Source of the DNA: an uncultured Planctomycetia bacterium
GTDB taxonomy: Bacteria; Omnitrophota; Gorgyraeia; 2-02-FULL-51-18
DNA: 64,000 nt
Assembly (NCBI GenBank): GCA_964642015.1
Contig: CAZXLF010000002.1
Coordinates: 2,717 to 66,716 of the forward strand
Direction: 5' to 3'
Below, piece by piece: positions 1-62,093 of this stretch. How positions within the stretch are numbered: the stretch's first letter is position 1; the number at the start of each line of letters is the position of its first letter. The translations under genes were made by a program, and so were the position numbers. Under the pieces are notes generated by a model that saw only the letters and a list, made by a program, of their open reading frames with translations, made no database searches and was not told where the DNA came from.

Positions 1-895
1 TTGATCGGTTTCTTTGTCCCCTGTCCAAAAGCGCAATAGCTCTATAAAGAGACGGAGGATAGAATTGATTTAGACGGGAAACGGCCCCGATACCTTCTAT
101 CTTAGGGCAAAAAGGTTCAGAAGACAAAAGCTTCGCACCTTTTTTTAAAAGCCGGTCATCTGAATTGGCGACTAATGTCATCGAACTCAGTTGATGCTTC
201 CACTTTTTGAAGAAGCGTACGCGGTTTTTTAAAAGATAATCTGCGTCCCCAAAACGATATAAATGATGATGAACGACCCGTATCCTACCATTATAAATAA
301 TTTGGTATCCTGCAAGCCTGGCTCGGACACAATAGTCAATGTCCTCATACTGACATGGAAAATATCTTTCATCGAAAGGACCGATTTTTTTTATTGCGTC
401 GCGGCGCATCAGCCAGCATGGTCCTGGTAGCGCATCACACTCGCGAATATAATCTCTTTGCCCTTGATCCCTTTCATATTTACCGACCATACCGAACGGC
501 TCAAATTTAAACTCAGCTGAGAATATGAGGCCATTGGGCCAGACGACTTTGCCGCCTACAATACCTATCTGAGGGTTCAGTTGCGCGCACTGAAGCAACT
601 TTTCAAGCCATTGGGGTGTTACTTCAATATCATCGTCTAATAAAGCGACCCAGGGGTTTCTACCGGCAAACAGCGCTTTATTCGCTGCTCCTGAAAAACC
701 CAGATTTTTGGGAAGCAGCAGTAAGGAGTCTATGGAATTTCGTTGTTTACGCAGAGATTCGCGTGTGCCATCCGTGCTATGGTTATCGATGATCGTTAAC
801 GTGTAAGGAACTGATCGGGTGTGTTCACGGATAGATCTTAAGCATCGTAAGATCTTTGCACGCGCATTATAGGTGACTATGATAATGTCAACCAT
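1..895 (-). CDS. GT2 glycosyltransferase paralog, partial at the window edge. The 5' ~545 nt are identical to gene 3226..4320; the 3' part has diverged.
   Basis: Minus-strand ATG at 895..893 (MVDIIIVTYNA...). Region 348..895 is nucleotide-identical to 3773..4320; upstream, 181..347 is only ~70% similar to 3601..3784. The ORF runs off the window start. Confidence 0.55.
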   Translation of the reverse strand, partial: MVDIIIVTYNARAKILRCLRSIREHTRSVPYTLTIIDNHSTDGTRESLRKQRNSIDSLLLLPKNLGFSGAANKALFAGRNPWVALLDDDIEVTPQWLEKLLQCAQLNPQIGIVGGKVVWPNGLIFSAEFKFEPFGMVGKYERDQGQRDYIRECDALPGPCWLMRRDAIKKIGPFDERYFPCQYEDIDYCVRARLAGYQIIYNGRIRVVHHHLYRFGDADYLLKNRVRFFKKWKHQLSSMTLVANSDDRLLKKGAKLLSSEPFCPKIEGIGAVSRLNQFYPPSLYRAIALLDRGQRNRS

Positions 896-1302
896 CCATT
901 CAACCTTATCTTATTCTTATTTTGTGAATCTTTGGTATACTGACGAATAGACGCTCAAAGAATATCATTTTCAGAGTAAATAGTACACTGGGACTATGGA
1001 AGAATAAAAATGAGAGCGGCTGCAGAAGTGTGCGTTGTTTTGTGCCGATCTATGGGCGCAGTAGGCATTATGGTATACGTTATTTTAACGTCAATTCTTA
1101 TTTAACATCTTTTTTAATCAACCCACTTTTTATCCTTTATTTGGCCATTTTGAATAAATTCAATTCGATGCATCAGGATGGAAGACAGGTTCTATTTTTT
1201 TAGACAACGATCGGATTGATGAATTACCGGATCAAATCGGATCGGCATAGAGAACAACTAGCGTTGGGCATACGGAGAAACGGGTATTCAGACGTTCCAT
1301 GA

Positions 1303-2526
1303 TCAGCAAAAAATCGTTCTTAAAGCATGGACAGCTTTTTCGTTATTCCTTTTAGCATATTCATATGCTTGAAGAGATAGTTGTTTGGCAAGATCGTGGT
1401 CATCTAAAACATCCAATACTTTATTTGCGAAGTCTCTGGGCGATCTGGAAATAAGAAAAGCCTTGGCTGCTCCGTTTTCCATACCCCTCGCTCCTATTGG
1501 CGTCGTAACGAGAGGTTTAGAATGACTTAGAGCCGTCAGATTTTTCGTACTTGACCCAGTCGCAAAAACCTCCGCATTGATCACGACATCCGAGTTGCCA
1601 TAAATTTTTTCAAGATTTTTCAAAGGACCTATCTTGAAGCAAGGACTTTTCACTTTGCTGATGAGGGGGCACACTTTTCCGGCAATAATAAATTGGGCTT
1701 TTGGATTTTTAACCCTGATCAATGGAAATATATCGTGCATAAAAAATTCCACGCTCTTTCTACTGCTTTGCGTATCGCCTCCGATAAAAAGAATATTGTG
1801 ACGGGAAGTTCTTTTTATGACAGGAGCGTATAACGGGAGCCAATGTCTCACTGTGACTACTCGTTTGGCGGTCAGTTTTGAAAAATAAGCTTTATCATCA
1901 TCCTGAATGGCCATAACGATATCCGCTCTGTCGAGCGCTTTCTTTTCTTGGCTTGTTTTCAGAGAAGCAGTGTTCAGTGGAAAAATACCATGAGCTAAGA
2001 GTTTTTTATTTCTATCGGCAAACACATCGATGGTATCTAGCAGTTTGAGGATATTGGGTCCAAAACATTCCAAAGATCGTGAAGTGACGGCGTATTCCGC
2101 TATTACGGCATCGGGCCTTATAGATTTAGAAAACGAATGGAGAAATCTATCCAGACGGGTATCATACCAGTCATCCAGATGCTTTAATTCGCCGCTGATC
2201 GTTTTAGAGAGCCTGTCCGGATGCTTGATATTATAAAACTCTTCAAAATCAGGCATATAAAATCCACTTTTCCAGCATCGCTTCATTTCAGAAATATCAT
2301 CATCTTTTCTTTGGTTTTTGGCTCTCAAGTAAACAAAATGGACCTGATGTCTCAATCTTTGCAACGTTTTAAGCAAATAATAGATTCGTATTCGATTGCC
2401 AGCGTTTTGCGGATGCGTGGCGATCGGAGAAATCACCAGTATTTTTTTTGTTTTGCTGTTAGAACGCATAGCGGCAGATCGATGAACTAGCCTGGTGTAA
2501 TGGTAAAATTTTGTAGAAGATGTCAC
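1303..2526 (-). CDS. GT-B fold glycosyltransferase, GT4-like
   Basis: 407-aa ORF with N-terminal 'KILVISPIATHPQNAGNRIR' and C-terminal 'FIIAGK...GSSTK...PLVTTPIGARG', typical GT4/GT1 architecture. Confidence 0.45.
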   Translation of the reverse strand: MTSSTKFYHYTRLVHRSAAMRSNSKTKKILVISPIATHPQNAGNRIRIYYLLKTLQRLRHQVHFVYLRAKNQRKDDDISEMKRCWKSGFYMPDFEEFYNIKHPDRLSKTISGELKHLDDWYDTRLDRFLHSFSKSIRPDAVIAEYAVTSRSLECFGPNILKLLDTIDVFADRNKKLLAHGIFPLNTASLKTSQEKKALDRADIVMAIQDDDKAYFSKLTAKRVVTVRHWLPLYAPVIKRTSRHNILFIGGDTQSSRKSVEFFMHDIFPLIRVKNPKAQFIIAGKVCPLISKVKSPCFKIGPLKNLEKIYGNSDVVINAEVFATGSSTKNLTALSHSKPLVTTPIGARGMENGAAKAFLISRSPRDFANKVLDVLDDHDLAKQLSLQAYEYAKRNNEKAVHALRTIFC

Positions 2527-2598
2527 TCAAAGGCGGAAAGGATTCAAGCAAGTAAAAATCGCAATAACAGGGAAGAAGGCGCGGGTGAAAAAAGCGGA

Positions 2599-2994
2599 TT
2601 AACTACCGACCCCGATCTCGTGAAGCTGCTCGTATCTTTTCATGGTCGGTTTTTTATATAAAGCTTTGCCTTTTTTCATGGGCTCTTTGTTGTTATGCTG
2701 AGGTTTCGACTCGGCCATATCTTGGCTTTTTTCGATCAAACTTTGGCTTTCCATTTCCTTCAATAAATTTCTAACGTCCTTTTGACAGGTAGAAAAGTCT
2801 ACATTGTATTCTTCTATGATTTTCGATATTATTTGATCGAATCCTTTTTGATCGACAATCATTTTCCATATGTATCCGCTGATCTTATCGAATACAAAGT
2901 AGAAACCTCTCTCCATATTTAGTACGACCGTTTGGTCTTCAACCTTCTTCCAGGAAATCTTGTCTTTATCTACGAAATATTTTGTATGAGCCAT
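2599..2994 (-). CDS. PqqD-family protein (RiPP recognition element-like) with a Lys-rich C-terminal tail
   Basis: 'VVLNMERGFYFVFDKISGYIWKMI...DVRNLLKEMESQSLI' follows the PqqD pattern (LN-x-t-a-x-iW...DV-x-x-FL-x-x-L-x-x-x-gli). Confidence 0.5.
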   Translation of the reverse strand: MAHTKYFVDKDKISWKKVEDQTVVLNMERGFYFVFDKISGYIWKMIVDQKGFDQIISKIIEEYNVDFSTCQKDVRNLLKEMESQSLIEKSQDMAESKPQHNNKEPMKKGKALYKKPTMKRYEQLHEIGVGS

Positions 2995-3225
2995 ATCTTT
3001 GCCCTCGTTTTTGTATAGATGATGTTGACCCGTAAATCACCATATTTCAAAGTATAATAGTTTTTATAGAAACTTACAAGCCTAGCTTAGGGTCACCCTG
3101 CTGTCAGTCTCTGTAAAAAATAAGCTTCAGTTTCTCAGAATGTTCTCGTCAGGAATATGGCGTATATTGCTATAAGGCTCAAAACTATAAAAGAGGACAT
3201 CTTTTGAAGGGATAAATCCTGGAAT

Positions 3226-4320
3226 TTACGCTCGGTCAGCGATTTTTTTCATAATCGTTTTTGGAGTTAAGTATTTTAGAAAATTCCGAGCCTCATGCTG
3301 GGCACTCCTCAGCATCCCAGCTCTGCGGAAATAAATGCATAGAAGGTGGTTGATGTTGGCACGTTCTCCTTTCGTGATACCTGTGTTTTTTTTGAGCCAA
3401 CGCGAAGTGTGTGTTAATTCTGTTATTGCTTGTCTTTTTTGTCCCGCATGAAGATGCACGATGGCGCGGTACAGCGATAACGGGTAGTATTCGCTTAATC
3501 GCGAAACACCGGCGACGCCGGGCGTGCGAGGACAGAAGGGCTCTGTCGAAAGAAGCTTGGCGCCTTTTTTTAAAATGCGGTCATCCGGACGTGTGATCAA
3601 CGTCATTGGGCCCAGCAGGCGTTCCCATTTTCTGAAAAAAAACTCGGCGTTTTTTATCAGATCGCGGTTTTTGCCAAAACGATAAAGATGATGATGGATA
3701 ATTTGAACTCGACCGTTATAATAGATCTTATAGCCTGCCCGACGCACTCGAATACAATAATCAATGTCCTCATATTGGTTTGGAAAATATCTTTCATCGA
3801 AAGGACCGATTTTTTTTATTGCGTCGCGGCGCATCAGCCAGCATGGTCCTGGTAGCGCATCACACTCGCGAATATAATCTCTTTGCCCTTGATCCCTTTC
3901 ATATTTACCGACCATACCGAACGGCTCAAATTTAAACTCAGCTGAGAATATGAGGCCATTGGGCCAGACGACTTTGCCGCCTACAATACCTATCTGAGGG
4001 TTCAGTTGCGCGCACTGAAGCAACTTTTCAAGCCATTGGGGTGTTACTTCAATATCATCGTCTAATAAAGCGACCCAGGGGTTTCTACCGGCAAACAGCG
4101 CTTTATTCGCTGCTCCTGAAAAACCCAGATTTTTGGGAAGCAGCAGTAAGGAGTCTATGGAATTTCGTTGTTTACGCAGAGATTCGCGTGTGCCATCCGT
4201 GCTATGGTTATCGATGATCGTTAACGTGTAAGGAACTGATCGGGTGTGTTCACGGATAGATCTTAAGCATCGTAAGATCTTTGCACGCGCATTATAGGTG
4301 ACTATGATAATGTCAACCAT
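3226..4320 (-). CDS. Family 2 glycosyltransferase
   Basis: 364 aa. 'IIIVTYNARAKILRCLRSI...TLTIIDNHSTDGT' and 'ALLDDDIEV' (DxD) mark a GT-A fold GT2. Confidence 0.75.
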   Translation of the reverse strand: MVDIIIVTYNARAKILRCLRSIREHTRSVPYTLTIIDNHSTDGTRESLRKQRNSIDSLLLLPKNLGFSGAANKALFAGRNPWVALLDDDIEVTPQWLEKLLQCAQLNPQIGIVGGKVVWPNGLIFSAEFKFEPFGMVGKYERDQGQRDYIRECDALPGPCWLMRRDAIKKIGPFDERYFPNQYEDIDYCIRVRRAGYKIYYNGRVQIIHHHLYRFGKNRDLIKNAEFFFRKWERLLGPMTLITRPDDRILKKGAKLLSTEPFCPRTPGVAGVSRLSEYYPLSLYRAIVHLHAGQKRQAITELTHTSRWLKKNTGITKGERANINHLLCIYFRRAGMLRSAQHEARNFLKYLTPKTIMKKIADRA

Positions 4321-4420
4321 CCATTCAACCTTATCTTATTCTTATTTTGTGAATCTTTGGTATACTGACGAATAGACGCTCAAAGAATATCATTTTCAGA
4401 GTAAATAGTACACTGGGACT

Positions 4421-5572
4421 ATGGAAGAACATAGAAAAGAAAAGCTTTTTCTGTTGAATTGCCTGTTGGAGTTAGCGCAGCCGGATCGTTTCGATACCCA
4501 GTCTTCCGCAGATCTTGATTGGGACTGGATCTTCCATTTTGCTTTTTATAATCGTGTGCTGGGTTTTGTCGGTTCTGTGCTCGAGAAAAAAAAGATCTTG
4601 GAAACATTAGGCAAAGAAGGGCGCTATAAGATCTTTTTCGCGATTCAAAGCGATTTACGGAATAATGAGATCAGACGCTCCGAATTCATTGAGCTAAGTT
4701 CGATGCTAAATGTTCATTCGATTTCCGTGATTCCATTGAAAGGCATCGCACTGTCCTACCTGGTTTACGACAAACTTCCTTGCAGACAGATGGTGGATCT
4801 GGACATTTTAGTGCAAAAGGAAGACGTTGAGCGTGTGCTGAAGATATTGGTCGAAAATGAGTTTGATCCGAACAAAGGGCGCACAAGGAACCGTTGGCAT
4901 GATGAAATGAATAAAGATCGAGTTATCTCTCATGCATTGGCATTGCAGGCGAATAGCTTGGGACGATTTGCGATGAGTAACGGAAGATATCAAGTAGACG
5001 TTCATTATGATCCTATTTATGCCAAGGTGAAAATGGATTTAGAACGTGTTTGGAAGCGGTCAACGGCGTATCCATCGATCTCTCCTAACGTACGCATGCT
5101 TGACCCTGTGGATCAATTTTTTCATGTACTTATTCATACCGCTCATTCTCCGTCGATCCGGGGGCTTTTAGACTTGCTCATGATGATGTCAAAATACAGA
5201 CTGGATCCGTCCCAGATAGCGGCGGATAAGGATGCCTCCAATATTCATTGGAAAAAATCGGAAAACCTTTTAAGATCCGTGTTGCAATTGCTCGATGTAG
5301 CAGATGCAGATCATCTTCCAGACCATCTCCTAAATAATTTGGACATCTTTTTTGAGATGACCCAAACAAATGATATGAGCTCAACTCCTGATCTCGGACG
5401 GTTGCGCCGGATCAGGTCGGTTAAGGATTTTTTTCTTTATTTTCTTGGTTACATTGTTCCGAACCCTTATTTTTATAATCGACGCAAAGGGCGCTGGGCG
5501 ATGTACAAGCAGCATTGGAAATCTTTGTATTTCAGGTTTTGCGCGCTTTTTCTAAAAAAAGCCAAGAAATAA
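4421..5572 (+). CDS. Nucleotidyltransferase family protein, PF14907-like; paralog of 10261..11358 and 59317..60285
   Basis: 'ISVIPLKGIALSYLVYDKLPCRQMVDLDILVQKEDVERV' matches the shared PLKG...R-x-M-x-D-(L/I/V)-D-(L/I/V)-(L/I/V) motif of the other two copies. Confidence 0.55.
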   Translation: MEEHRKEKLFLLNCLLELAQPDRFDTQSSADLDWDWIFHFAFYNRVLGFVGSVLEKKKILETLGKEGRYKIFFAIQSDLRNNEIRRSEFIELSSMLNVHSISVIPLKGIALSYLVYDKLPCRQMVDLDILVQKEDVERVLKILVENEFDPNKGRTRNRWHDEMNKDRVISHALALQANSLGRFAMSNGRYQVDVHYDPIYAKVKMDLERVWKRSTAYPSISPNVRMLDPVDQFFHVLIHTAHSPSIRGLLDLLMMMSKYRLDPSQIAADKDASNIHWKKSENLLRSVLQLLDVADADHLPDHLLNNLDIFFEMTQTNDMSSTPDLGRLRRIRSVKDFFLYFLGYIVPNPYFYNRRKGRWAMYKQHWKSLYFRFCALFLKKAKK

Positions 5573-5639
5573 AACTTACGGATTGAGCGAGAGCCGTTAT
5601 TCAGTACGTAAAAAATTGTGGCGGGTCAAAGTTCTTTGC

Positions 5640-5938
5640 TTTTTTACGATCAATGGACGCTTTGACGATCTTGAGAGCGTGCGGCTTTAATTTTTCGCTC
5701 ACATTTTCCCAATTTTTTTCATTCAATTTTTTTCCAGATTTCTGACAAACAAGGGAAGAAGAACATAAGAGTTTTGTTCAAATTTATTTTCCATTTCCAA
5801 TGAAGATGATGGGCGGGAATAGAGTTCCCAGTCTCTGAATGCGTTTTCGCCCGTCAAAAGCGACGCCCGGAAAAGATATTTTTGCTTTGCAGTAAAGCGT
5901 TGGTTTAAAGGAAAGATTGCTGTTTTGCATAAATCCAA
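5640..5938 (-). pseudogene. Deletion scar: the N-terminal 71 aa of a nucleotidyltransferase paralog joined to the C-terminal remnant of a GT2 gene
   Basis: ORF 5723..5938 (MDLCKTAIFPLNQRF...LLPLFVRNLEKN) is ~55% identical to the N-terminus of 10261..11358. The reverse complement of 5590..5700 translates to '..HALKIVKASIDRKKAKNFD', matching the C-terminus 'NVLKIVKASIDRKKSKEL*' of GT2 7235..7954 with a 1-nt frameshift. Confidence 0.6.
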
Positions 5939-7017
5939 TAATATTTATACTAACAAGCAAAGCATATATCAGATACTGTTTTATTTTGAATAGGATGATA
6001 TCATGTTGCCAAAGGGCTTATCTTATGTCGGAAGTTGATGAGAGCGTTATCGCGGGCAAGGACAGGCTGCAGCTTAATTTTCTTTATCTGACCGAGCTCT
6101 TAGCAAATCATTTGAAGATCGGACGCAGGTATCATGATGGCATCCGGAAGAAATTTGAAGCGGCATTTTACGAGCGTTTATTGTCGGCCGGTACAACCGT
6201 GAATCCCCCCGCTCTTCCCGTAGACCGTGTTCGGAAAATATCAGCTGTTGATTTCGCGAATAGCTACCTAAAAAAATACAAACCTGTGGTACTGGAGGGT
6301 TTTTGTGGCTCCTGGCCGGCGTCGAAGAAGTGGAATTTTGACTATTTACTGAATAACTATGGAAATATCCGCATACAGGTCCCTAATAGCTCTGAGAGCG
6401 TAACATTAAGTTCGATCTTGGAATCGATCTTGAATGGATCGGAGCCGCGTTATGTTAATTTTTTACCGCTACTTTTTGCGGCGTCCGACATGAAATCCTC
6501 GGTCGATTATAATGAATTTAAAAGGATCGCAGGACTGCCTGACAAAACCATATTTGTTTCAAAACCCTATATCGGTCAAAAGACATATAAATGCAGCGTT
6601 CACAATGATATTAGCCACAATTTTTTGACGCAATTTCAAGGAGAGAAGACCGTGACACTTTTTCCGCTTTCGCAGACCCCTTTTCTTTATTCCAAGGCGG
6701 AGTGTCCGGCGCCCAGCACTTTTTCCATCCGGACGAGATTTGATAAAGGCACATTACTGGATTCGGAGTTCGAAGCGTTTCCGCTGGCGCGTTTTGCTCA
6801 GCCATTTCAAACCAAACTTTTCCCGGGCGATATCCTTTTTATACCCGCTTTTACTTGGCATCAAGTCTATTACGATACACCGACGATTGGTCTGGGGAAT
6901 TGGTGGGTGGATTTTAAAGATAATTTCCGGATCAGTCCGCTTTTTACTTTGATGAGCCTGCCCCGCTACATTGAGGGCTACCGAATGTATCGCCGTGATT
7001 CTTTTAATACAAAGTGA
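5917..7017 (+). CDS. Cupin-like / JmjC-domain protein, putative 2-oxoglutarate/Fe-dependent hydroxylase; the true start may be the ATG at 6025
   Basis: 'KYKPVVLEGFCGSWPASKKWNFDYLLNNYGNIRIQV' is the typical N-terminal block of cupin_8/JmjC proteins. His/Asp candidates lie in 'CSVHNDISHNF' and 'FTWHQVYY'. Confidence 0.45.
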   Translation: MLFCINPIIFILTSKAYIRYCFILNRMISCCQRAYLMSEVDESVIAGKDRLQLNFLYLTELLANHLKIGRRYHDGIRKKFEAAFYERLLSAGTTVNPPALPVDRVRKISAVDFANSYLKKYKPVVLEGFCGSWPASKKWNFDYLLNNYGNIRIQVPNSSESVTLSSILESILNGSEPRYVNFLPLLFAASDMKSSVDYNEFKRIAGLPDKTIFVSKPYIGQKTYKCSVHNDISHNFLTQFQGEKTVTLFPLSQTPFLYSKAECPAPSTFSIRTRFDKGTLLDSEFEAFPLARFAQPFQTKLFPGDILFIPAFTWHQVYYDTPTIGLGNWWVDFKDNFRISPLFTLMSLPRYIEGYRMYRRDSFNTK

Positions 7018-7128
7018 TTTGATATATCTTTTGAATTATTTTCAGATCCGTATTTTTATCTTTTGATCAAACGTAAAGAGATATTTTTATATTAGGCTTG
7101 AGTTTTTGTTTAATTGACGCTCTTGGGA

Positions 7129-7292
7129 AATCTTTGTATTTCAGGTTTTGCGCGCTTTTTCTAAAAAAAGCCAAGAAATAAAACTTACGGATTGAGCGAG
7201 AGCTGTTATTCAGTACGTAAAAAATTGTGGCGGGTCAAAGTTCTTTGCTTTTTTTGCGGTCAATTGACGCTTTGACGATCTTGAGAACATTT
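7129..7292. repeat. ~165-bp near-identical copy of 5516..5690: convergent gene ends of an NTase (+) and a GT2 (-) plus the intergenic spacer
   Basis: Direct comparison: 'gaaatctttgtatttcaggttttgcgcgctttttctaaaaaaagccaagaaataaaacttacggattgagcgagag...' is present at both sites. Confidence 0.8.
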
Positions 7293-7954
7293 TGTACCGT
7301 CCAGCGCGAATCATTCATTAAATGAGACAGGTTGGAATCATGGATGCGGCGAAGCGTAAGCTTATCGGGAAGAATAGCCATTGGAACGGAAGCTTCCCTC
7401 GCGCGTAAGAACCAATCAGTGTCATCTCCCATTTTAAAAGAAATATTGAAATCGCCTATTTTTTCAAATACCGACCTTCGAGACATCAGTGCACTCGGTA
7501 TGAACGACGCGGCATTGATGTCAGCCATATTTCTTTTAGTTTTTTCATCGAGCCATGATGGGATATCGGAGCCCGTTTCGATAAAATTCTTGATATGGCA
7601 TAGCACAAGTCCTTTATCGGGATTTGCCAAAAGATAATTGACCTGAAGGCGCGTTTTTTGGGGAAGCCACATATCATCCGAATCCAGGAACGAAATAAAT
7701 TCTCCCTTAGATTCCCGAAGCCCTAAATTGCGTGCTTGTGCCGGACCGATCCCTTGATGAGCCTGATAAAAATACCTGACTTTTTTGAAAGAACGGACGA
7801 CCTCGGCTGTTCGATCCGTTGAGCCGTCGTCAACAACGATAACTTCTAACGCTTCATAATCCTGTTTAAACACGCTTTTAAGAGCATCTTGAATGAATTT
7901 TTCGCGATTGTGGACAGGAATGATAACGCTTACTAGCGGTTGGCCGTTGTTCAT
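7235..7954 (-). CDS. Family 2 glycosyltransferase
   Basis: 'LVSVIIPVHNREKFIQDALKSVFKQDYEALEVIVVDDGSTDRT' and 'DSDDMW'. Confidence 0.75.
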   Translation of the reverse strand: MNNGQPLVSVIIPVHNREKFIQDALKSVFKQDYEALEVIVVDDGSTDRTAEVVRSFKKVRYFYQAHQGIGPAQARNLGLRESKGEFISFLDSDDMWLPQKTRLQVNYLLANPDKGLVLCHIKNFIETGSDIPSWLDEKTKRNMADINAASFIPSALMSRRSVFEKIGDFNISFKMGDDTDWFLRAREASVPMAILPDKLTLRRIHDSNLSHLMNDSRWTVQNVLKIVKASIDRKKSKEL

Positions 7955-7960
7955 TTGTGC

Positions 7961-9028
7961 CTACAGTCTGCCTAGCAGTTTCTCAATGCTATTTGGTATT
8001 TCGGTTAAAAGTTTGCCTGTATTCAGGCGGTAACAAGGCAATGACTTGATGATCTTTTTCAAACGCTCGAATTCAGTGGCACCCGAGTCGGGCAGTTGAA
8101 GCAAAGTGTTCGGGGCGACGGCCGAAATCGCTGAGATCGGCGAGATCTCTTCAACTGTTGTGTTTTCATTTTGCGTGTAGTGAGCGATCGTCACGGCTTT
8201 TAACGGAAACCGGTCGATCATTTTATTTTTGAAATGTTGATGCAGAAAGAATAATGATTTTTCGTCTTCCTGCCATTTCGGATCTGTAACAGCCGATATT
8301 CCGATATCAGGAAATTTATGTACGAATTGTTTGAGGAGTTTGGCGGAACTGTAAAGCGGAGAGGCGAAAGGAATATCGTTGTTGAAATAAACGTCAACAA
8401 AATCATCGGCCATCAAACTGAGCGCCGATGAGAGACAGGAAAGGGCTGTGGTTGATTTGCCCGAGCCTGATTTTCCTGCTATCAAGATGCCTCCTGACCG
8501 GTTGCCCACGGCAGCTGCGTGGACTATTTGATGCCCTTTGCTTCTAAGCCACCAGTGAAAAACTGTTTTTAAAGGAGAAGCGATCTCATACAGAGGGATT
8601 GCATTTGGATCTTTTATAAATACAAAAGCTGTTTTTTCGCGGGAATCGACAAAATAAAAATAGTTGGAGCTGCGCAGTCCGATCAGATCTTTACCTTTAA
8701 GGTAGGCGTCGTTCTCCGATATGGACTCCGGCGGTTCGATTTCGGTCGACCCGTCCCATAGATGGAACGTGAATTCGGCCCTGTCAAAAGGTTTGACTTC
8801 GGCGTGCGCGAGCGCAGCCGAAAAAAACGATTTTAAATTTGGACCTGCCGATCTAAAGATCAAATTCTGTCCGGCTATCGTGTAGTAGTATCGCTGTGCG
8901 CCCGATCTTTCAACTGCTTTCTCGAATTGCCGGCGGAAAACTTCCGTCAAAGAATTACTTGGGATTTTGATCGTGTCCAAGATCGGGATTTGGTTTGCGG
9001 TTAGGCCAGCCTTTATCGTCCACATCAT
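7961..9028 (-). CDS. HprK-related P-loop kinase, similar to the HPr kinase C-terminal domain
   Basis: 'GGILIAGKSGSGKSTTAL' resembles the HprK catalytic P-loop (GxLIxGxSGxGKSxxAL). It lies beside a PqqD-family gene and an NTase, as does the paralog 54890..55783. Confidence 0.5.
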   Translation of the reverse strand: MMWTIKAGLTANQIPILDTIKIPSNSLTEVFRRQFEKAVERSGAQRYYYTIAGQNLIFRSAGPNLKSFFSAALAHAEVKPFDRAEFTFHLWDGSTEIEPPESISENDAYLKGKDLIGLRSSNYFYFVDSREKTAFVFIKDPNAIPLYEIASPLKTVFHWWLRSKGHQIVHAAAVGNRSGGILIAGKSGSGKSTTALSCLSSALSLMADDFVDVYFNNDIPFASPLYSSAKLLKQFVHKFPDIGISAVTDPKWQEDEKSLFFLHQHFKNKMIDRFPLKAVTIAHYTQNENTTVEEISPISAISAVAPNTLLQLPDSGATEFERLKKIIKSLPCYRLNTGKLLTEIPNSIEKLLGRL

Positions 9029-9410
9029 GAATGGGGTCGGCTTGGAAGAAGTCTTGCATGTCCGTGTATTTGTGCATCACGGGCGTTTGGAATTTCGCGT
9101 TACGAAGCTCAGCGGGAATATTTTTTTTGGAGGACTCCGTGGAAGGAGAGGGGTCGGCCGTGATCAGCTCTTCTTTTTTAAGCTCATCAAGGAATTTGTT
9201 TACCGCGCCGCTGATTTGGCTCGATTCCGAATGGGTTTCTTTGGAAATGATCTCAATGATTTCATTTTCGGAACTGCCTTGGGAGATGAGATGCCATATC
9301 GCAGCGCCTGTTTTTTCGAGATTATAATAAAATCCGGCTCCCAAATGAATGATTACAGCCTCGCCGTCGATAAGTTCATGAACTACCATGGGTTGAATTT
9401 TAAAATGCAT
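8955..9410 (-). CDS. PqqD-family protein (RRE-like) with a C-terminal extension
   Basis: 'VVHELIDGEAVIIHLGAGFYYNLEKTGAAIWHLISQGSSENEIIEIIS...VNKFLDELKKEELI'. Confidence 0.6.
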   Translation of the reverse strand: MHFKIQPMVVHELIDGEAVIIHLGAGFYYNLEKTGAAIWHLISQGSSENEIIEIISKETHSESSQISGAVNKFLDELKKEELITADPSPSTESSKKNIPAELRNAKFQTPVMHKYTDMQDFFQADPIHDVDDKGWPNRKPNPDLGHDQNPK

Positions 9411-9485
9411 ATTTTAATTTTTTATATTTTTCCGAGTCTCTCTGAATGGTGACTCTAACAAATTTCATATGCTGTGTCAACGCTT

Positions 9486-10196
9486 CTAGACGGTTTTTTT
9501 ATTTTTGGGATGATTTTTTTTTCTGTCCAAGGAGGCCTTCAGCGCTTTCGCGAACTCGGCTGAAAGATATTGGCGCTGTCTGAGCGTGTTATTTTCATCG
9601 TGGAGGCGCCTGAATAACACAAGCTCTTTGACAGAGGTCATTTTTAGTCCAAGATCTTTGGCTTGCAGATGCCAGTTCAAAAATTCAGTGACCTTCCATT
9701 CCGGTTCAAAGAAACCGACTTTTAAAAAAGAAGCTTTTTTGATGAGTAAAGCGCCCGGGCAAATACCGCTCATGGGTTCTGTCGGGCGCTTGAGAGCTTT
9801 TTCCTTTTCAACGGTGAGTTCGGGAGAAAGAAAATTCCGGATCTGCCCAAATACCATATCCAAAGATTTATCATTGCTGAAAGGCGCCATCATTAATTCA
9901 AGACGATTCTCGGGCCAAACGTCATCGGCATCGAGAAAGGCGATATATTCTCCTTGGGCTAAAGTCACGCCGCGATTTTTCGGCGAAGCAAGCCCTTGAT
10001 GTTCTTGATAAAAATAGCGGATCTTCGCGCCGTAGCTTTGCGCTATTTTTTCGGTATCATCCGTCGAGCCGTCATTGATAACGATGATTTCGGTTGAAGG
10101 ATAAGTTTGGACAATCGCGCTGTCTATAGCTTCTCGCAGATATCGACCGTAGTTGTAAGCTGCAATGATGACGCTGATCAGAGGGGATCGTTTCAA
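9486..10196 (-). CDS. Family 2 glycosyltransferase
   Basis: 'LISVIIAAYNYGRYLREAIDSAIVQTYPSTEIIVINDGSTDDT' and 'LDADDVW'. Confidence 0.75.
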   Translation of the reverse strand: MKRSPLISVIIAAYNYGRYLREAIDSAIVQTYPSTEIIVINDGSTDDTEKIAQSYGAKIRYFYQEHQGLASPKNRGVTLAQGEYIAFLDADDVWPENRLELMMAPFSNDKSLDMVFGQIRNFLSPELTVEKEKALKRPTEPMSGICPGALLIKKASFLKVGFFEPEWKVTEFLNWHLQAKDLGLKMTSVKELVLFRRLHDENNTLRQRQYLSAEFAKALKASLDRKKNHPKNKKTV

Positions 10197-10260
10197 TAGA
10201 TTCTCCGCGTTTCGAAAAAGCCCAACGATTTATTCAGATCTTATCCTAACATGATGAGAA

Positions 10261-11358
10261 TTAATTAGGCGTTTTCTTTTTTAGAAGTTTATTCACCGCT
10301 GCCATGGGTAATTTCCACCATTTTTTTACATGCCATCGGTACATCAGATAAACGCGGAATCCCGATATTTTGGTAAACCAATTTTCAGATCGCATGCCGC
10401 GGTAAAATTGAGACCAAATATCCAGAGCTTTTCTAAATCTAGATCGACCGTTGCCGATAAAAGGAGAAGTATTTAATACCAAGCAGACACGCTCATCGAT
10501 GGATATTTCCAGCGCATCGAGTTCTTTCAAGACCGTTTTAGGAGCAGAGGTTCCGAGCGTTTCCATTAAATAATGAAGGCCGATGCGTAAAGCCAGACAA
10601 CGGTTTTGCCGTTTTGATCTTTCGATCACTGTGTTCCAATCAACCGGAAAGGCAGTGCTATTGACCAGCACGAACATATCCGAGACCCAACGAAGATTCC
10701 ACGCTTTCGGCTCCTGCATGAAGTGTAAAAGATCTGTTGGGCTGAGCGCCGGTACACTGATATCGTCCAAAGAAACGGCGATGGCATTTTCCCAATTTTT
10801 TTCATTGGCGAACCAATGCACGTCAATTCTTGCACCTTCTTTGTTTTCGAACTCTTTGGCGAATGAATAATCACTCACGCGGTTCCATCCGGACTCTTCC
10901 AATATCCTCAAAGCATCGTTCAGATTTTCGGGTTTGACGATAATATCCACGTCTTTCATATAACGGACACCCATGTCGCAATAGTGAGTCGTCGCTATAG
11001 ATGCTCCTTTGAAGATCATGACTTTTATGCCGCATTCGTTCATTTTTTTGATCGCCGATGCAGCCGAATGCAAAAGGATCTGATTTTTCGTCCATGTATG
11101 GCGGTAAACACCACGGTATTTGGCTGGAAGCAGTTCGCTGCGCCCATGTTTTTCCAGATTTCGAAAGAACAAAGGCAGAAGGGTATATGCTGCTTGTTCG
11201 AATTCTGCTTCTATCTCTTGCGGAGACAGTGGGCGAGAGAATTGTTCCCAACTTTTGAGAGCTTCATCGCCCTGCAGAAGGGACGCGCGTAAAAGCTGTT
11301 CATGTTCCGCCGTGAAGAGTTTTTTTAAAGGATAAATTTCGGTTTTTGTTTTTTTCAT
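10261..11358 (-). CDS. Nucleotidyltransferase family protein, PF14907-like
   Basis: 'CGIKVMIFKGASIATTHYCDMGVRYMKDVDIIVKPENLNDALRIL' is paralogous to 4421..5572 and 59317..60285. Confidence 0.55.
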   Translation of the reverse strand: MKKTKTEIYPLKKLFTAEHEQLLRASLLQGDEALKSWEQFSRPLSPQEIEAEFEQAAYTLLPLFFRNLEKHGRSELLPAKYRGVYRHTWTKNQILLHSAASAIKKMNECGIKVMIFKGASIATTHYCDMGVRYMKDVDIIVKPENLNDALRILEESGWNRVSDYSFAKEFENKEGARIDVHWFANEKNWENAIAVSLDDISVPALSPTDLLHFMQEPKAWNLRWVSDMFVLVNSTAFPVDWNTVIERSKRQNRCLALRIGLHYLMETLGTSAPKTVLKELDALEISIDERVCLVLNTSPFIGNGRSRFRKALDIWSQFYRGMRSENWFTKISGFRVYLMYRWHVKKWWKLPMAAVNKLLKKKTPN

Positions 11359-11555
11359 GACATCTTTTCAATATGCTAACAAACGCGCCGCAAGAACGCA
11401 AAACCTTCGCTTTTTTCATTAATGCCGAAAAACTTTATCAGACTGACGAATTTGGTATTAAATATAAGACCGGATATGGTCTGTAAATTTATTTAGATCC
11501 GCCGAGCCCTAAAAGGGTCTTCCCAGCCTCTAGGATCTCATGGTAACATAAAAAA

Positions 11556-13016
11556 ATGCAGGATATTTCGGCCCCATCAAATAATGCTTCGGGCGATCTT
11601 ATAAGCGTGATCATTCCTGCTTGGAACAGAGCTGCGTTCCTGGCGGATGCGATCGAGAGCGTGAATCAACAAAGACACGAAGCGCTCGAGATCATTGTCA
11701 TAGACGATGGGTCAACCGACGATACCCGAAAGATAGCGGAACAATTGAAGGGGAATATCCGCTATATTTTGCAACCTCACCGCGGTGTTGCGGCTGCGCG
11801 CAACGCCGGCATAAAAGCCGCGCGCGGAAACATCATCGCGTTTCTCGACACAGATGACCTCTGGCCTCCCTACAAATTGAACATCCAGCTCGATGCGTTG
11901 AAAAATGGCGCGTTTGAAATGGTTCTGGGCGCGTCTCGCATAGTAAAGCTTTGTGAAAATAGGCAAGAGCCGTTTGTGAGAAATAATTTATCGCCTACAT
12001 TTTCATATCATTTATCGAGCGGACTTTATCAACGAAGTGTTTTTGACAAGATCGGCTTGTTTGACGAGCGTTTGACGCCGAGCGATGATGTTGATTGGTT
12101 TCTTCGGGCACAAGAAGCGGAAGTCCGCGCTTTGATTTTAAGTCAGGAAACGGTGATATGGAGACAGCATGACAACAACATCAGCGTGGGCAAATCGATC
12201 AAAGAGCTGAACCTTTTTAAAGTTTTGAAGGGATCTGTCGACCGGCGCTCGAACGTCAAAAAGAATTTCACTGCGTTTCGTACGTTTGAATATCAAAAGC
12301 CGGATCTTATGGAGGAGCCGCTTATAAGTGTTGTCGTGCCCGTTTGCAATGGCGCGCGCTTTCTGGCAATGGCGCTCAGAAGTATTTTTGATCAATTCTA
12401 CCGTAATTTCGAAGTGATCGTTGTTGATGACGGGTCCGATGATAACAGCGCGGAGATCATAGGCTCGTTCCCAAAAATTACCGCGATCCGCCAAAAAAGA
12501 AAAGGTGTCGCAACCGCTCGCAACACCGGCATCGATGCCGCTCGGGGTGAATTCATCGCTTTTTTAGACCAAGACGATCTTTGGATGCCCAGTAAACTGT
12601 GTTTGCAGATAGCCTGCCATTTAAAGAACTCTAACATCGGTTATTCGCTGACAGGTGAAAAAATTTTTATCGAACCCGGTTCGCCGAGCCCGGCGTGGCT
12701 TAGGAGAGAGATGTTCGATGATCATATTGGTCATGTTCTAGGGGCGATCATGATTAAAAAAAATATTTTTGAACGCGTCGGACTTTTTGATCCAGCGTAC
12801 GAGATCGTTAGTGACGCAGATTGGCTTTTCCGCGCAAAGGATGCCGGAATAACCGCTTATCAATTGACAGACACATTACTTTTGAGAAGGATCCACCAGA
12901 ATAATGTTACTCACCGGCAGTCAGAAATGCGCGCTGAGCTTATGAGATCGCTCAAGGCGTCTGTGGACAGGCAAAATGCGGCTAAAGGTCGTCCATTGAA
13001 ACCTTACGCGGGTTGA
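11556..13016 (+). CDS. Two-domain (tandem) family 2 glycosyltransferase
   Basis: Two GT2 signatures: 'LISVIIPAWNRAAFLADAIESV...IIVIDDGSTDDT' near the N-terminus and 'LISVVVPVCNGARFLAMALRSI...VIVVDDGSDDNS' near aa 260. Each is followed by a DxDD block. Confidence 0.7.
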   Translation: MQDISAPSNNASGDLISVIIPAWNRAAFLADAIESVNQQRHEALEIIVIDDGSTDDTRKIAEQLKGNIRYILQPHRGVAAARNAGIKAARGNIIAFLDTDDLWPPYKLNIQLDALKNGAFEMVLGASRIVKLCENRQEPFVRNNLSPTFSYHLSSGLYQRSVFDKIGLFDERLTPSDDVDWFLRAQEAEVRALILSQETVIWRQHDNNISVGKSIKELNLFKVLKGSVDRRSNVKKNFTAFRTFEYQKPDLMEEPLISVVVPVCNGARFLAMALRSIFDQFYRNFEVIVVDDGSDDNSAEIIGSFPKITAIRQKRKGVATARNTGIDAARGEFIAFLDQDDLWMPSKLCLQIACHLKNSNIGYSLTGEKIFIEPGSPSPAWLRREMFDDHIGHVLGAIMIKKNIFERVGLFDPAYEIVSDADWLFRAKDAGITAYQLTDTLLLRRIHQNNVTHRQSEMRAELMRSLKASVDRQNAAKGRPLKPYAG

Positions 13017-13031
13017 ACGAAAGATCCCTTT

Positions 13032-14171
13032 TTAAGATTTGTCGGCAAAAAGCAAAGGAAGCGAAACGCTTCTCACGGAAGGATCGGCAAATCGAAATAT
13101 CGCTCTATCGATAACGAAATGCATATAAACCGAAGCTGAATTAAAGGCGATGAAAAAGCTTGCTATCCATGGAATAGAGAACGCAGGTTGTAGTAAGGAA
13201 AATAAGATAGGCAAGTTTTTGAACCTATTGGGATTGAACGCAGAATAGATCAGGGGTGTCAGAAAAATGGACACCGCGCACAAGACGAGAACTGTGAGCC
13301 AGAAACGCCGGCTTATGCCACCGATCCATTTGTACCATAGCGAAACCGATTGAGTGTTGCTCCTGTCATTTTGGGCCATGTGGGCGGCGAGGGCTACCGA
13401 AACGATCCAATGTTGGGCTATCCAAAGTATGAAAAAAGATAATGGCTGCAGGAAATAAGCAAGCACGCCCTGAGCCGAAAGGCCTGTCACATAAAGTATT
13501 TTCGGCAGTGAGATCTTTTTAGATCTAAATTCAAAGATGTAAAAAATAACGGTCAGACAAATGATCGAAACCGGCGCGATAATTTTTAGGAAATGAAATA
13601 GAGCGGTAAACGATGTTTGGGGCCACCATCGGTATAAAATGGAATCTTTTACAACTTTTGCGCCGTGCCCCACTTGAGCCAAAGCGACAAGTACGGATCC
13701 TACGGCCAGGCAGAATAATTTTTCGTACTTTTTGAAACCACCGCTCAAATCCTGGCGTGATCGCATGCGATAAATGCTGATAACTCCATAATGCTGAATT
13801 CCTACATGAAAAGTATTATAGAGAAAAAAGATAGTGGCTAATATCTGAGCCTTGACCATTAAACCCAAAGGGATCACGGATAGCGGCATGAATACAAAAG
13901 CGAAGACCGCAAGAAAAATAGCGATCGGCAACAGAACAAAACGCGGATATTGCCGGAGCAAAAGTGGCCGATAAGCCGGATTGCAGAAAGCGTTAAACGA
14001 AGTCGCGAAGCGGTGAGCGATTCCCAGAATTAAAGTAAGGATGATAAAAATTAATCTAAGAATTCTCGGCGCGGAATTATAAACGGCCAATATAACCAAT
14101 AGCCATATTCCTGATAGCATCCAAAATCCATCCCAATAAGCCGACCTTAGCCAGGGATTGGGGTTTTTCAT
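13032..14171 (-). CDS. Polytopic integral membrane protein, possibly a Wzy/O-antigen-polymerase-like or ligase-like protein
   Basis: 379 aa with ≥9 hydrophobic helices and no soluble domain. It sits in a glycosyltransferase neighbourhood. Confidence 0.3.
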   Translation of the reverse strand: MKNPNPWLRSAYWDGFWMLSGIWLLVILAVYNSAPRILRLIFIILTLILGIAHRFATSFNAFCNPAYRPLLLRQYPRFVLLPIAIFLAVFAFVFMPLSVIPLGLMVKAQILATIFFLYNTFHVGIQHYGVISIYRMRSRQDLSGGFKKYEKLFCLAVGSVLVALAQVGHGAKVVKDSILYRWWPQTSFTALFHFLKIIAPVSIICLTVIFYIFEFRSKKISLPKILYVTGLSAQGVLAYFLQPLSFFILWIAQHWIVSVALAAHMAQNDRSNTQSVSLWYKWIGGISRRFWLTVLVLCAVSIFLTPLIYSAFNPNRFKNLPILFSLLQPAFSIPWIASFFIAFNSASVYMHFVIDRAIFRFADPSVRSVSLPLLFADKS

Positions 14172-14434
14172 TGGGTGTCGGCACGGGATTTAGAATATAT
14201 TTATTATTATGGACTTTAATTTGATTGTCAAGCGAACTGAATCCGAATTTGAAACGTGCTGCTGCAATTTTGTCCTCAATTCTGCAGAGATATTTTCGGG
14301 TTTATTCAAAATCTTCGTAATTGCGTCAGTTGAAGCGATATATGCTGGTGTAATTTCATTTTTTTTATTATGATAATCATGTCTATACAATAGGAAACGC
14401 TAAAATCACTAAGAAAATCCCTCTCTTAAACTTC

Positions 14435-15160
14435 TTGCTCGATATTTTTGGATCTCCAAAATCCGTAAAACCAAAAATTTTGGTAATAGGCGGTTCTGGT
14501 CATGTTGGCCGATTGATCCTGCCGTTGATGTCAAATGAATTTGATATTACTGTCTATGATCTCGTTAAACCGCCTAAAGGTTCATGGAAATTTGTCCACG
14601 GCGATGTCCTCAATTTTTTGTCGCTTTGCAAAGCTTGTCAAAATCAAGCGGCGATAGTTTATCTGGCCATGGGAAAGCCGGATGATGATATTCATGCTGC
14701 TTATGATGTGAACGTAAAAGGTCTGCATCTTGCGCTTGAAGCGGCTTGGAAGGCTAAAGTTCCGCGAGCTGTTTATGCTAGCACGTTGTCGATTTATGAA
14801 GACCTTCCCCGGTTCGATGAAGGCGGTGCCGATGATGAAGCGATGGCACCAAGGCCAAGCAGGGTATATGGTTTAAGTAAATTTTTCGGTGAAGAAGTCT
14901 GCCGATTTGTTTCCCGAAAACGCGGAATGACAATATTCGCATTGAGGCTTTTTTTACCTGTTTCTCAGGAAGAACGGCGTGAAAAAAGTATCGCAAGACC
15001 CGTTGATTGCCGAACCAGCGCTCCCGATGTTGCGCGTGCGTTTATCGCAGCGCTTAATACCAGGTATCAAGGCTTCGAAGTTTTTCATATCACCGGCGAT
15101 AGAACGGGCAAAGCATTCTCGCATAGCAAAGCCAAAAAGATCCTGAATTGGTCTCTCTAG
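14435..15160 (+). CDS. NAD(P)-dependent epimerase/dehydratase-family oxidoreductase
   Basis: N-terminal Rossmann motif 'ILVIGGSGHVGRLILPLM', 241 aa. Confidence 0.45.
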   Translation: MLDIFGSPKSVKPKILVIGGSGHVGRLILPLMSNEFDITVYDLVKPPKGSWKFVHGDVLNFLSLCKACQNQAAIVYLAMGKPDDDIHAAYDVNVKGLHLALEAAWKAKVPRAVYASTLSIYEDLPRFDEGGADDEAMAPRPSRVYGLSKFFGEEVCRFVSRKRGMTIFALRLFLPVSQEERREKSIARPVDCRTSAPDVARAFIAALNTRYQGFEVFHITGDRTGKAFSHSKAKKILNWSL

Positions 15161-15261
15161 CTTTTCCATATAAATTGATATGATTCTGCTGTCAACGGAT
15201 CTAAAGAAGTAAGTTTCGAATTTAGTTTGAGTTTTTGTTTAATTGACGCTCTTGGTCGGGC

Positions 15262-15345
15262 AGGATAGAATACGTTTTTTCTATGGTGGGCGCCTGCCTG
15301 CCGGCAGGCAGGTAGCTCAGCTGGGTTAGAGCGTCTGACTGTGGC
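15262..15345 (+). repeat. Composite repeat: a conserved leader, a 22-bp perfect palindrome, and a truncated 5' copy of tRNA-His that ends in the anticodon loop
   Basis: 'caggatagaatacgtttttctatggtgggcgcctgcctgccggcaggcaggtagctcagctgggttagagcgtctgactgtggctc'. Compare the intact tRNA-His at 22998 and the second copy at 20628. Confidence 0.7.
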
Positions 15346-15736
15346 TCTTATCAAGGGCTTTAACACCGTTTCGTTTGGTTTCATTTCTTTTTACAATCCC
15401 TCTACTTAGCGATTTACATGATTTACATGGTGTATGTGACTTAGCTTTGTTTTGGTTGGTGTTTGTCACAATTTTTTCGCATTAAAAATAACCGCGATCA
15501 GAACAACGCGATTCGTTTGAAATAGTTAAACCTCCAGAATATGTAGTCCACGACTATTTAAATTTGACCTCGCAATCAATTGCTTGAAGTCCCAGTTGAA
15601 ACTGTTTTTACTAACTATTTATTATTAAAAGCGATAAGATACTACCCAAATTATGCCGAAAATTTTTAAACGAATATTAAACACCTGCTATATATTATAA
15701 AAAAAAGTACTATAATAATAGGAGAAGGATATCTTT

Positions 15737-16876
15737 GTGAAAGCCATCGCCGTTTTTCCGTCTAAAAAAGAGATCAAGCTTATAGATTATGCTCTTCCCG
15801 AGATAACCAAGCCGACCGACGTCAAAGTCCGTGTTCTCGAAGTCGGTATTTGCGGAACCGATAAAGATATCTGTACATTTCAGTACGGTACTTCGCCGGT
15901 AGGCTCCGAATATTTGGTGATCGGCCATGAGTGTTTGGCCCAGGTGGTCAAGGTCGGTTCGAAAGTATCAGGTCTATCCGTCGGCGATCTGGTGGTGCCG
16001 ATGGTCCGGCGGCCGTGCCATCACCGGAGCTGTTTTGCCTGCCGGGCCGACCGCCAGGATTTTTGCTTCACGGGTGATTTCACCGAGAGAGGCATCAAAG
16101 AGGCGCACGGCTTTATGACGGAGTTTGTCGTCGACGATGAAAAATATTTTAATCGCGTGCCGAAGGAATTACGCGATGTCGCTATTCTTACGGAACCTCT
16201 GACGATCGCTGAGAAAGCGCTGATACAGATCTGGCAGGTGCAGCAGAGACTTCCCTGGGGACCGGGACCGAAAGGGCAAAAGCCGGGTTACTGTCACAAA
16301 GCGGTTGTTTTAGGAGCGGGGCCTGTGGGGCTTTTAGGAGCGATGGCGCTCTTGAATGCGCGTTTTGAAACCACTGTTTATTCGCGCGAATCGATCTCAA
16401 GTCCCGAAGCTTCTTTTATCCAGTCTGTAGGAGGATCTTATGTTTCCTCCGAGGCCGAAACGTTGGATGATTTTGCAAAGCGCATAGGCAATATGGATCT
16501 TGTGTATGAAGCCACGGGAGCCGCGCAGATCTCTTTTGACATGATGAAAGTGTTGGGCACGAATGGTGTCATGGTTTTCACGGGAATCCCCGGAATAAAA
16601 GGCCCGATAGAGGTCGAAGCGGATCAGATCATGAGGAATATGGTGCTGAAGAATCAGGTTTTTTTTGGGACAGTCAATGCGGGCCGCCAAGCGTTTAAGT
16701 CAGCTATTAAGGATCTGGCAATTTTTGAAAAGCGCTGGCCGAAAGCCGTTCGTTCGCTGATCACCGGCCGTTACGAGATGGAGAACTACCGTGATCTTCT
16801 TTTAGGGCCCAAGAAAGGGATAAAAAATATTTTAGTGCTGGATAAAAATCCTACGATAAAAAAGGCGAAAAAATAA
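15737..16876 (+). CDS. Zinc-dependent alcohol/sugar dehydrogenase of the MDR family (GTG start)
   Basis: 'GHECLAQVVKVG', 'VLGAGPVGLLGAMAL', and Cys ligands 'CHHRSCFAC'. Confidence 0.65.
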   Translation: MKAIAVFPSKKEIKLIDYALPEITKPTDVKVRVLEVGICGTDKDICTFQYGTSPVGSEYLVIGHECLAQVVKVGSKVSGLSVGDLVVPMVRRPCHHRSCFACRADRQDFCFTGDFTERGIKEAHGFMTEFVVDDEKYFNRVPKELRDVAILTEPLTIAEKALIQIWQVQQRLPWGPGPKGQKPGYCHKAVVLGAGPVGLLGAMALLNARFETTVYSRESISSPEASFIQSVGGSYVSSEAETLDDFAKRIGNMDLVYEATGAAQISFDMMKVLGTNGVMVFTGIPGIKGPIEVEADQIMRNMVLKNQVFFGTVNAGRQAFKSAIKDLAIFEKRWPKAVRSLITGRYEMENYRDLLLGPKKGIKNILVLDKNPTIKKAKK

Positions 16877-20471: not shown

Positions 20472-20627
20472 AAGGAAATTATCTAAAAACCTAAAAAATC
20501 CATTAGTTTAGTGAAAAATATTTTATCGCGACCTTTTAACGTATATGTTATTGATTCATACCCAACCTCAGCTATCCATATAGTGAAATTCTGATCTTTT
20601 TGTTTAATTGAAGTTCTTTGCTGGGCA

Positions 20628-20770
20628 GGATAGAATACGGTTTTTCTATGGTGGGCGCCTGCCTGCCGGCTGGCAGGTAAAGCGTCGGCGGACTTCACAG
20701 CGCGTGTCGATTTTGAAAGAATTTGGTGGGCGTAGCTCAGCTTGGTTTGAGCGTCTGACTGCGGCTCTGC
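20628..20770 (+). repeat. Second composite repeat: leader, palindrome variant, tRNA-His upstream region, and a truncated 5' tRNA-His copy
   Basis: 'gggcaggatagaatacggtttttctatggtgggcgcctgcctgccggctggcagg...aaagcgtcggcggacttcacagcgcgtgtcgattttgaaagaatttggtgggcgtagctcagcttggtttgagcgtctgactgcggctc' is near-identical to 22908..23040 up to the anticodon loop. Confidence 0.7.
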
Positions 20771-54865: not shown

Positions 54866-54889
54866 ACGCTTATTTCAAGACTAGTCCAA

Positions 54890-55783: not shown

Positions 55784-55796
55784 TGCGAGTCATTTA

Positions 55797-62085: not shown

Positions 62086-62093
62086 GAATCGAT

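Follow-up and report, generated by a model that had tools for sequence, protein, structure and literature searches.

The left 15 kb of the DNA analysed here form a paralogue-rich locus, on the evidence of Pfam and NCBIfam. This DNA, which we call the window, is a stretch of 64,000 nucleotides (nt) from an uncultured Planctomycetia bacterium (GTDB lineage Bacteria; Omnitrophota; Gorgyraeia; 2-02-FULL-51-18), taken from the forward strand of contig CAZXLF010000002.1 of assembly GCA_964642015.1, positions 2,717 to 66,716. Within the locus we are concerned chiefly with the 1.6 kb at 5517-7126. This region starts inside the 3' end of NT_A, an intact nucleotidyltransferase (NTase) gene, and ends shortly before an intact minus-strand cassette of five genes at 7235-11358 (NT_2, GT2, PqqD, an HprK-like kinase and GT2_7235). 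It holds remnants of a GT2 gene and of a second NTase gene beside a single intact gene, for a JmjC-type hydroxylase, and a copy of a direct repeat stands at either end of it (Table 1). The region is no working device but an evolutionary footprint, left behind as a cluster of sugar- and peptide-modifying genes underwent duplication, recombination and deletion.

Gene remnants and the 161-nt repeat

The direct repeat pairs 5517-5676 with 7126-7286 at 96.9% identity over 161 nt, with four substitutions and one indel (blastn self-comparison, E 3e-72). The substitutions (at 5595, 5646, 5649 and 5655) are unevenly placed, one lying in the 123 nt of NTase end and spacer and three in the 37 nt of GT2 tail (Fisher p 0.039, or 0.010 when the indel in the tail, of 1 nt in a T-run near 5640, is counted too). 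This uneven density (1/123 vs. 3/37) indicates that the repeat is composite, a younger tract abutting an older one. On its left the tract is cut by a joint at 7126, and to the right of 5676 similarity to GT2_7235 can no longer be detected. The spacer between the convergent gene ends is 99% identical in the two copies, a likeness in non-coding DNA that might be taken to mean that selection has conserved the repeat for a function between the convergent genes, for instance as a bidirectional terminator or a regulatory RNA. We consider this very improbable: there are no terminator-like sites in the spacer, its folding is no better than that of shuffled sequences (z 0.32 and 1.14), there is no Rfam match, and copy 2 has no upstream gene to terminate.

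The end of GT2_7235 is copied only at 5626-5676, on the minus strand, where it encodes LKIVKASIDRKK before the indel in the T-run shifts the frame. Twelve codons of this tail are identical at the protein level, and since its three substitutions are all synonymous (chance 0.011), the tail may well have been the end of a working gene; so, at least, the pattern suggests.

Beyond it lies the 71-codon N-terminal stub of a decayed NTP_transf_5 paralogue, NT_1. The stub aligns without gaps to NT_2 (5726-5926 vs. 11146-11346, 67% nucleotide identity), its protein is 56.7% identical over 67 amino acids (aa) to NT_2 residues 5-71 (E 1.3e-21), and the two start codons are in register (5938 + 5420 = 11358). 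Among 1.84 billion representative proteins searched with phmmer, its best match is NT_2 itself (P0003), the next relatives being 46% and 44% identical; with its nearest match in the same locus, the stub is thus a local paralogue. It has no internal stop, and its differences from NT_2 fall 20/13/33 by codon position, with pS 0.64, pN 0.24 and omega about 0.2. These figures are those of an old, long-lived functional paralogue that evolved under purifying selection, of which the stub is evidently the remnant. Its 71-aa open reading frame (ORF) has no Pfam match, as is to be expected because the model match in NT_2 starts only at residue 60.

Tail and stub are parted by a composite junction of 49 nt, made up of 25 nt (5677-5701), a 22-nt copy of part of NT_2, and 2 nt before the stub. 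The 25-nt piece shows only a weak 71% match (5665-5698 vs. 7872-7905). The heptapeptide encoded by the 22-nt patch, NEKNWEN, is native to the NTase family, the HWF-x5-W spacing being found also in the distant relatives P0005 and P0006. An 11-nt direct repeat, CAATTTTTTTC, occurs at 5710-5720 and again at 5724-5734. The segment 5677-5735 was also considered as a continuation of the GT2 tail, its KKLNEKN... resembling the RRLHDEN... of GT2 paralogues; this was rejected for 5702-5723, where the 22 nt are those of NT_2 and the motif belongs to the NTases. A tblastn search of all intergenic gaps in 1-16000 revealed no remnants other than those listed.

An initial annotation, made by eye, had drawn attention to these fragments, and the similarities it relied on are upheld by proper alignment, though within narrower limits. 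The NTase fragment it placed at 5723-5938 (minus strand) is real, with its start in register, and the repeat does contain the 3' end of NTase 4421-5572 and a spacer (5517-5572 and 5573-5625), although the right-hand limits it assigned to the repeat (5516-5690 and 7129-7292) are about 14 nt too long. The GT2 tail, given as some 20 codons at 5640-5722, is indeed present and frameshifted but shorter, and the two remnants are not fused directly, as had been proposed, since the composite junction lies in between.

Table 1. Features of the left 15 kb of the window, with positions counted from its first nucleotide
Feature	Position	Strand	Remarks
GT2, partial	1-895	-	Pfam/NCBIfam
GT1	1303-2526	-	Pfam/NCBIfam
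PqqD	2599-2994	-	Pfam/NCBIfam
GT2	3226-4320	-	Pfam/NCBIfam
NT_A, intact NTP_transf_5	4421-5572	+	PF14907, E 2.7e-33; convergent on repeat; also on independent contig L004
Repeat copy 1	5517-5676		NT_A 3' end (5517-5572, last 56 nt), spacer (5573-5625), frameshifted GT2 tail (5626-5676, minus strand)
Junction sequence, 25 nt	5677-5701		No 12-mer match elsewhere in window
22-nt patch	5702-5723	-	Perfect copy of 10785-10806 (22/22, E about 6e-5); NT_2 codons 185-191 (NEKNWEN)
NT_1, N-terminal 71-codon stub of decayed NTP_transf_5 paralogue	5726-5938	-	TTG start; stop at 5723-5725
Cupin_8/JmjC-type hydroxylase, intact	6025-7017	+	PF13621, E 1e-28
Clipped copy of element E left end, 29 nt	7098-7126	+	100% identical to 15227-15255
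Repeat copy 2	7126-7286		Orphan NTase 3' stub (7126-7181, 17 codons and stop), spacer, genuine 3' end of GT2_7235
GT2 (GT2_7235)	7235-7954	-	Pfam/NCBIfam
HprK-like kinase	7961-9028	-	Pfam/NCBIfam
PqqD	8955-9410	-	Pfam/NCBIfam
GT2	9486-10196	-	Pfam/NCBIfam
NT_2, NTP_transf_5	10261-11358	-	Pfam/NCBIfam
Double GT2	11556-13016	+	Pfam/NCBIfam
Gene without family assignment	13032-14171	-	Pfam/NCBIfam scan
Epimerase	14435-15160	+	Pfam/NCBIfam
Left end of full element E15	15227-15255	+	Closes block 2, after epimerase gene; counterpart of 7098-7126

Collinear blocks and the joint at 7126

The second repeat copy is immediately preceded by the clipped left end of a repeated intergenic element, E, whose full form closes the following block. 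The similarity extends somewhat further to the left (7091-7126 vs. 15220-15255, 33/36, 91.7%), and the E identity stops exactly at the start of repeat copy 2. With a microhomology of only 1-2 nt (G/GG) the joint is essentially blunt, and the edge at 7126 is an illegitimate joint with a clipped element E.

Four tracts are the sole significant matches between 5517-7126 and 7126-15255: 5517-5676 with 7126-7286, 5702-5723 with 10785-10806, 5726-5926 with 11146-11346, and 7098-7126 with 15227-15255. Because all of them occur in the same order and orientation, the 1.6-kb region is collinear with the whole 8.1-kb block and not just with the five-gene cassette. It follows that the duplicated gene ends, which the initial annotation treated as a separate phenomenon, are the left end of a collinear pair of modules.

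The structure is real DNA and not a product of the window's assembly, since independent Logan contigs from four samples (sequencing runs) match the window at 100% identity over every junction. These contigs correspond to 3944-5774 (L004), 5616-7155 (L005), 5630-7155 (L006) and 7126-8300 (L003), the last three confirming the joint at 7126. It may be objected that short-read contigs break inside the repeat, and that a de Bruijn graph by itself would permit a path using the repeat once, so that the true arrangement would be NT_A, one repeat and GT2_7235, the rest then coming from another strain or from a 1.6-kb circle of its own. That this is an artefact of such a kind is hardly credible, for L004 joins NT_A to the scar of remnants by way of copy 1, whose private variants it carries, L005 and L006 join the scar to copy 2 by way of the hydroxylase gene, these contigs stem from different samples, and the two repeat copies differ at five positions. 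The intact cassette is likewise present on two Logan contigs (L001 and L002); its NCBIfam scores all lie under the model cut-offs.

An array of this kind could have come about by recent tandem duplication, a unit of about 8-10 kb, which begins 56 nt ahead of the NT_A stop and reaches as far as nt 29 of E, having been doubled head to tail with its sole join at 7126, after which the first copy would have been almost wholly deleted and in part replaced by the segment with stub and hydroxylase gene. One novel join of the expected form is there (7098-7126 = 15227-15255; 7126 onwards = 5517 onwards), the end of the unit (29 nt of E) abutting its start (the NTase 3' end) with near-zero homology, and three of the collinear tracts are 97-100% identical. 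Tandem duplications in bacteria that have a single emergent junction and lack homology at their endpoints have been documented (PMC7661048), and the joint at 7126 resembles their join points in being single and novel, with unit end against unit start and 1-2 nt of microhomology. Unlike those cases, however, divergence and gene content are not uniform here: the tracts range from 67 to 100% identity, the hydroxylase gene occurs only in the first copy, and that copy is reduced from 8.1 to 1.6 kb. Copies so unevenly alike, one of them so shrunken, are not accounted for by a simple recent duplication alone. The NTase stub, at just 67% identity, has a dS above 1, and the synonymous sites of the GT2 tail have diverged too far in comparison with the spacer. 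The lack of the hydroxylase gene in the second copy would call for an additional replacement of some 4.4 kb by 1.4 kb, and 7018-7090, just upstream of the 29-36-nt E tract, has no significant match to 15161-15219. Recent tandem duplication therefore seems to us an unlikely, though credible, origin.

Element E is of some interest in itself. Over the spans 15227-15402, 20597-20821 and 22899-23076 it occurs in full twice, upstream of an intact tRNA-His; counted with the clipped copy, the one at 20597 is the third. It is built of a left arm of about 57 nt, a copy of the palindrome upstream of tRNA-His together with 42 nt from the start of tRNA-His, which reach the anticodon, and a shared right arm. 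Its copies bracket a block of higher GC content (ADH, cyclase, 6PGD, GH15) and a block with an AMP-binding gene, and they resemble attachment (att) sites, but the Pfam scan of window ORFs revealed no integrase domain. The tract at 7098-7126 was considered as the border of a tRNA-targeted integrative island and rejected, as it matches only the non-tRNA left part of E and the scanned ORFs contain no integrase. A highly speculative thought, to which we attach very little weight, is that the modules make up a tandem array built at tRNA-His, as units that each end in E (the E-left arm, a copy of the region upstream of tRNA-His and of its 5' 42 nt), with peptide- and glycan-tailoring cassettes gained and lost by recombination at E in a somewhat integron-like manner; 7098-7126 would then be a unit border.

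Gene conversion and a proposed history of the modules

Direct evidence for exchange between paralogues comes from the same locus. A perfect direct repeat of 649 nt (356-1004 = 3781-4429) takes in the N-terminal half of two GT2 paralogues and the divergent intergenic region, and reaches 9 nt into an NTase gene. It lies in register inside GT2 paralogues that are otherwise 54-72% identical, with a drop in identity to the left of the tract, and ends at a second NTase truncation, where ATGGAAGAA is followed by TAA (996-1007, M-E-E-stop, the stub itself being 996-1004). The junction 1004|1005 is confirmed by Logan contig L012 (975-3810). This tract is, to all appearances, gene conversion between paralogues seen directly, bounded by a truncation junction. 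The 9-nt 5' NTase stub at 996-1004 and the 56-nt 3' stub at 7126-7181 flank the sole intact copy, NT_A, and of the two young repeats one ends exactly at NT_A codon 3 and the other starts exactly at codon -18. Both stubs could derive from a single former gene, as its two ends, 1005-7125 having taken the place of the interior.

The history that we favour, and to which we would give about an even chance, is that an old sister module of 7126-15255 has eroded to 5517-7126, short tracts having later been homogenised by gene conversion. Both modules would have followed one plan, with a convergent NTase gene, a minus-strand operon running from GT2 to NTase, one or more divergent plus-strand genes, and an element E. 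A complete operon would once have stood between 5676 and 5726 in module 1, and deletion would have reduced it to the 16-codon GT2 tail and the 71-codon NTase stub, linked by the 49-nt junction, so that only the hydroxylase gene was kept intact. Module 2 would have lost its convergent NTase gene save for the last 56 nt, with the blunt illegitimate joint at 7126 clipping the preceding E after 29 nt. Conversion between the modules would then have homogenised short tracts up to the ends of homology, the clearest being the 123 nt of NTase end and spacer; the 649-nt tract may be attributed to the same process. Conversion, rather than duplication, would thus be the presumed source of the 99% tract, and the order of events is what we infer from a single haplotype.

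This history agrees broadly with the initial annotation's view that cassettes here recombine, duplicate and decay, as seen in the repeats, the remnants and the 649-nt conversion tract. It departs from the proposal that the scar represents the outer two genes of one cassette copy whose interior was deleted once. The two halves of the scar are unequally diverged from the cassette (92-99% vs. 67% identity) and differ in age, and the unequal divergence rules out a single duplication of the cassette followed by one interior deletion.

The layout of repeat, insert and repeat, with both flanking genes whole, may also be read as a complex insertion. NT_A would at first have faced GT2_7235 over a single spacer, and template switching or end joining would have copied in 1.45 kb (5677-7125) from elsewhere, returning 161 nt upstream of the point of departure and so creating the flanking repeat; the 25-nt and 22-nt pieces would be filler from nearby sequence. 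Short patches do form a mosaic at the left junction, one of them a perfect 22-nt copy taken from a paralogue 5 kb distant, and the right joint is blunt. Changes in the GT2 tail that are exclusively synonymous, and a tail more diverged than the spacer, would be unexpected in a fragment without function from the outset; nothing that could have been the source of the insert was found in the window; and gene conversion elsewhere in the locus accounts for the young tracts without any insertion. On balance we hold a complex insertion to be improbable, though credible.

Several points do weigh against erosion of a sister module. The model requires several deletions and at least two conversions, and plain deletion fails to explain a perfect 22-nt patch amid unrelated sequence. 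The right ends of the modules have just 29-36 nt in common, the hydroxylase gene is without a counterpart in block 2, and the argument from selection on the GT2 tail depends on three substitutions. In addition, no intact counterpart of the lost cassette or of the stub was found in the databases searched; nor did these public data yield a related locus of the kind that the initial annotation had suggested for comparison.

Relatives, comparable loci and significance

The hydroxylase gene, alone intact in the eroded module, and the stub are transcribed divergently, and the closest solved structures to the hydroxylase are JMJD5 and FIH. The exact protein is called on contigs L005 and L006. In an index of 5.8 billion proteins it finds itself and a single relative of 51% identity (P0002), which sits in an exopolysaccharide locus (Wzy/Wzz/Poly_export) with no NTase and is therefore uninformative on the lost cassette; the protein matches no locus among the genome contigs. 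The same index returned NT_2 alone when searched with NT_2 and gave no match for the stub. No match was obtained for an NT_2 alignment in genome or metagenome contigs, nor for NT_A in metagenome contigs. NT_2 and the hydroxylase are nearly orphan proteins, and the lineage is very poorly sampled. P0005, a metagenomic protein of 637 aa, consists of an epimerase domain, 50% identical to the epimerase encoded at 14435-15160 (E 5e-79), fused to an NT_2-like NTP_transf_5 domain, and this fusion suggests that the two enzymes work together.

A weak inverted repeat of 28 nt (5958-5985 and 7006-7033, 71% complementary) brackets the hydroxylase gene and may be due to chance. As in a transposon insertion with target-site duplication, an insert here lies between direct repeats, but at 161 nt the repeat is far longer than such a duplication. 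Insertion of an insertion sequence (IS) or transposon was rejected, since terminal inverted repeats are lacking at 5677 and 7125, no transposase is present, and the insert bears only the Cupin_8 gene.

Polysaccharide and secondary-metabolite loci carry gene remnants and mosaic paralogous modules that result from duplication, deletion and gene conversion. The present locus is like them in its truncated gene ends beside intact neighbours, its sharp switches from about 60% to 100% identity within paralogous genes, and its direct repeats at module borders. It is unlike them in having no IS elements or transposases at those borders, and in that PqqD, an HprK-like kinase and NTP_transf_5 accompany GT2 in place of the classical Wzx/Wzy.

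Lasso-peptide clusters are known to be accompanied by an HPr-kinase-like kinase, PqqD, an uncharacterised nucleotidyltransferase and GT2 (PMC7533575), and the intact cassette resembles these tailoring sets in its PF14907, PF05402 and HprK-like P-loop domains. Neither a lasso cyclase (Asn-synthetase-like) nor a leader peptidase (transglutaminase-like) was found among the ORFs of at least 120 aa scanned with Pfam, and a lasso-peptide biosynthetic cluster was rejected on that ground. Between NT_2 and the double GT2 gene lies a plus-strand ORF of 37 aa (11373-11486, MLTNAPQERKTFAFFINAEKLYQTDEFGIKYKTGYGL), called as a gene on Logan contigs, which is possibly the precursor peptide of this PqqD-containing cassette.

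Elsewhere in the window, a second tailoring and export cluster at 52676-63914 includes three radical-SAM genes, an S24-like protein, an ABC transporter, Poly_export and a Wzz/ATPase-like gene, as well as a third NTP_transf_5 gene (59317-60285). Two tandem GH16 paralogues (30225-30886 and 31096-31757) are 69% identical in DNA.

For annotation, 5573-6024 and 7126-7181 are to be treated as pseudogene remnants and not as genes. The 161-nt and 649-nt repeats are sites at which assemblies break, and recombination there could lead to loss of the hydroxylase gene. The dynamics are ordinary for a genome and reveal no new mechanism. What the locus provides is a base-by-base record of the remodelling of a paralogue-rich tailoring locus in a poorly sampled lineage, in which old module duplication, deletion to stubs that spares the adjoining promoters and genes, and short-patch homogenisation are all visible.

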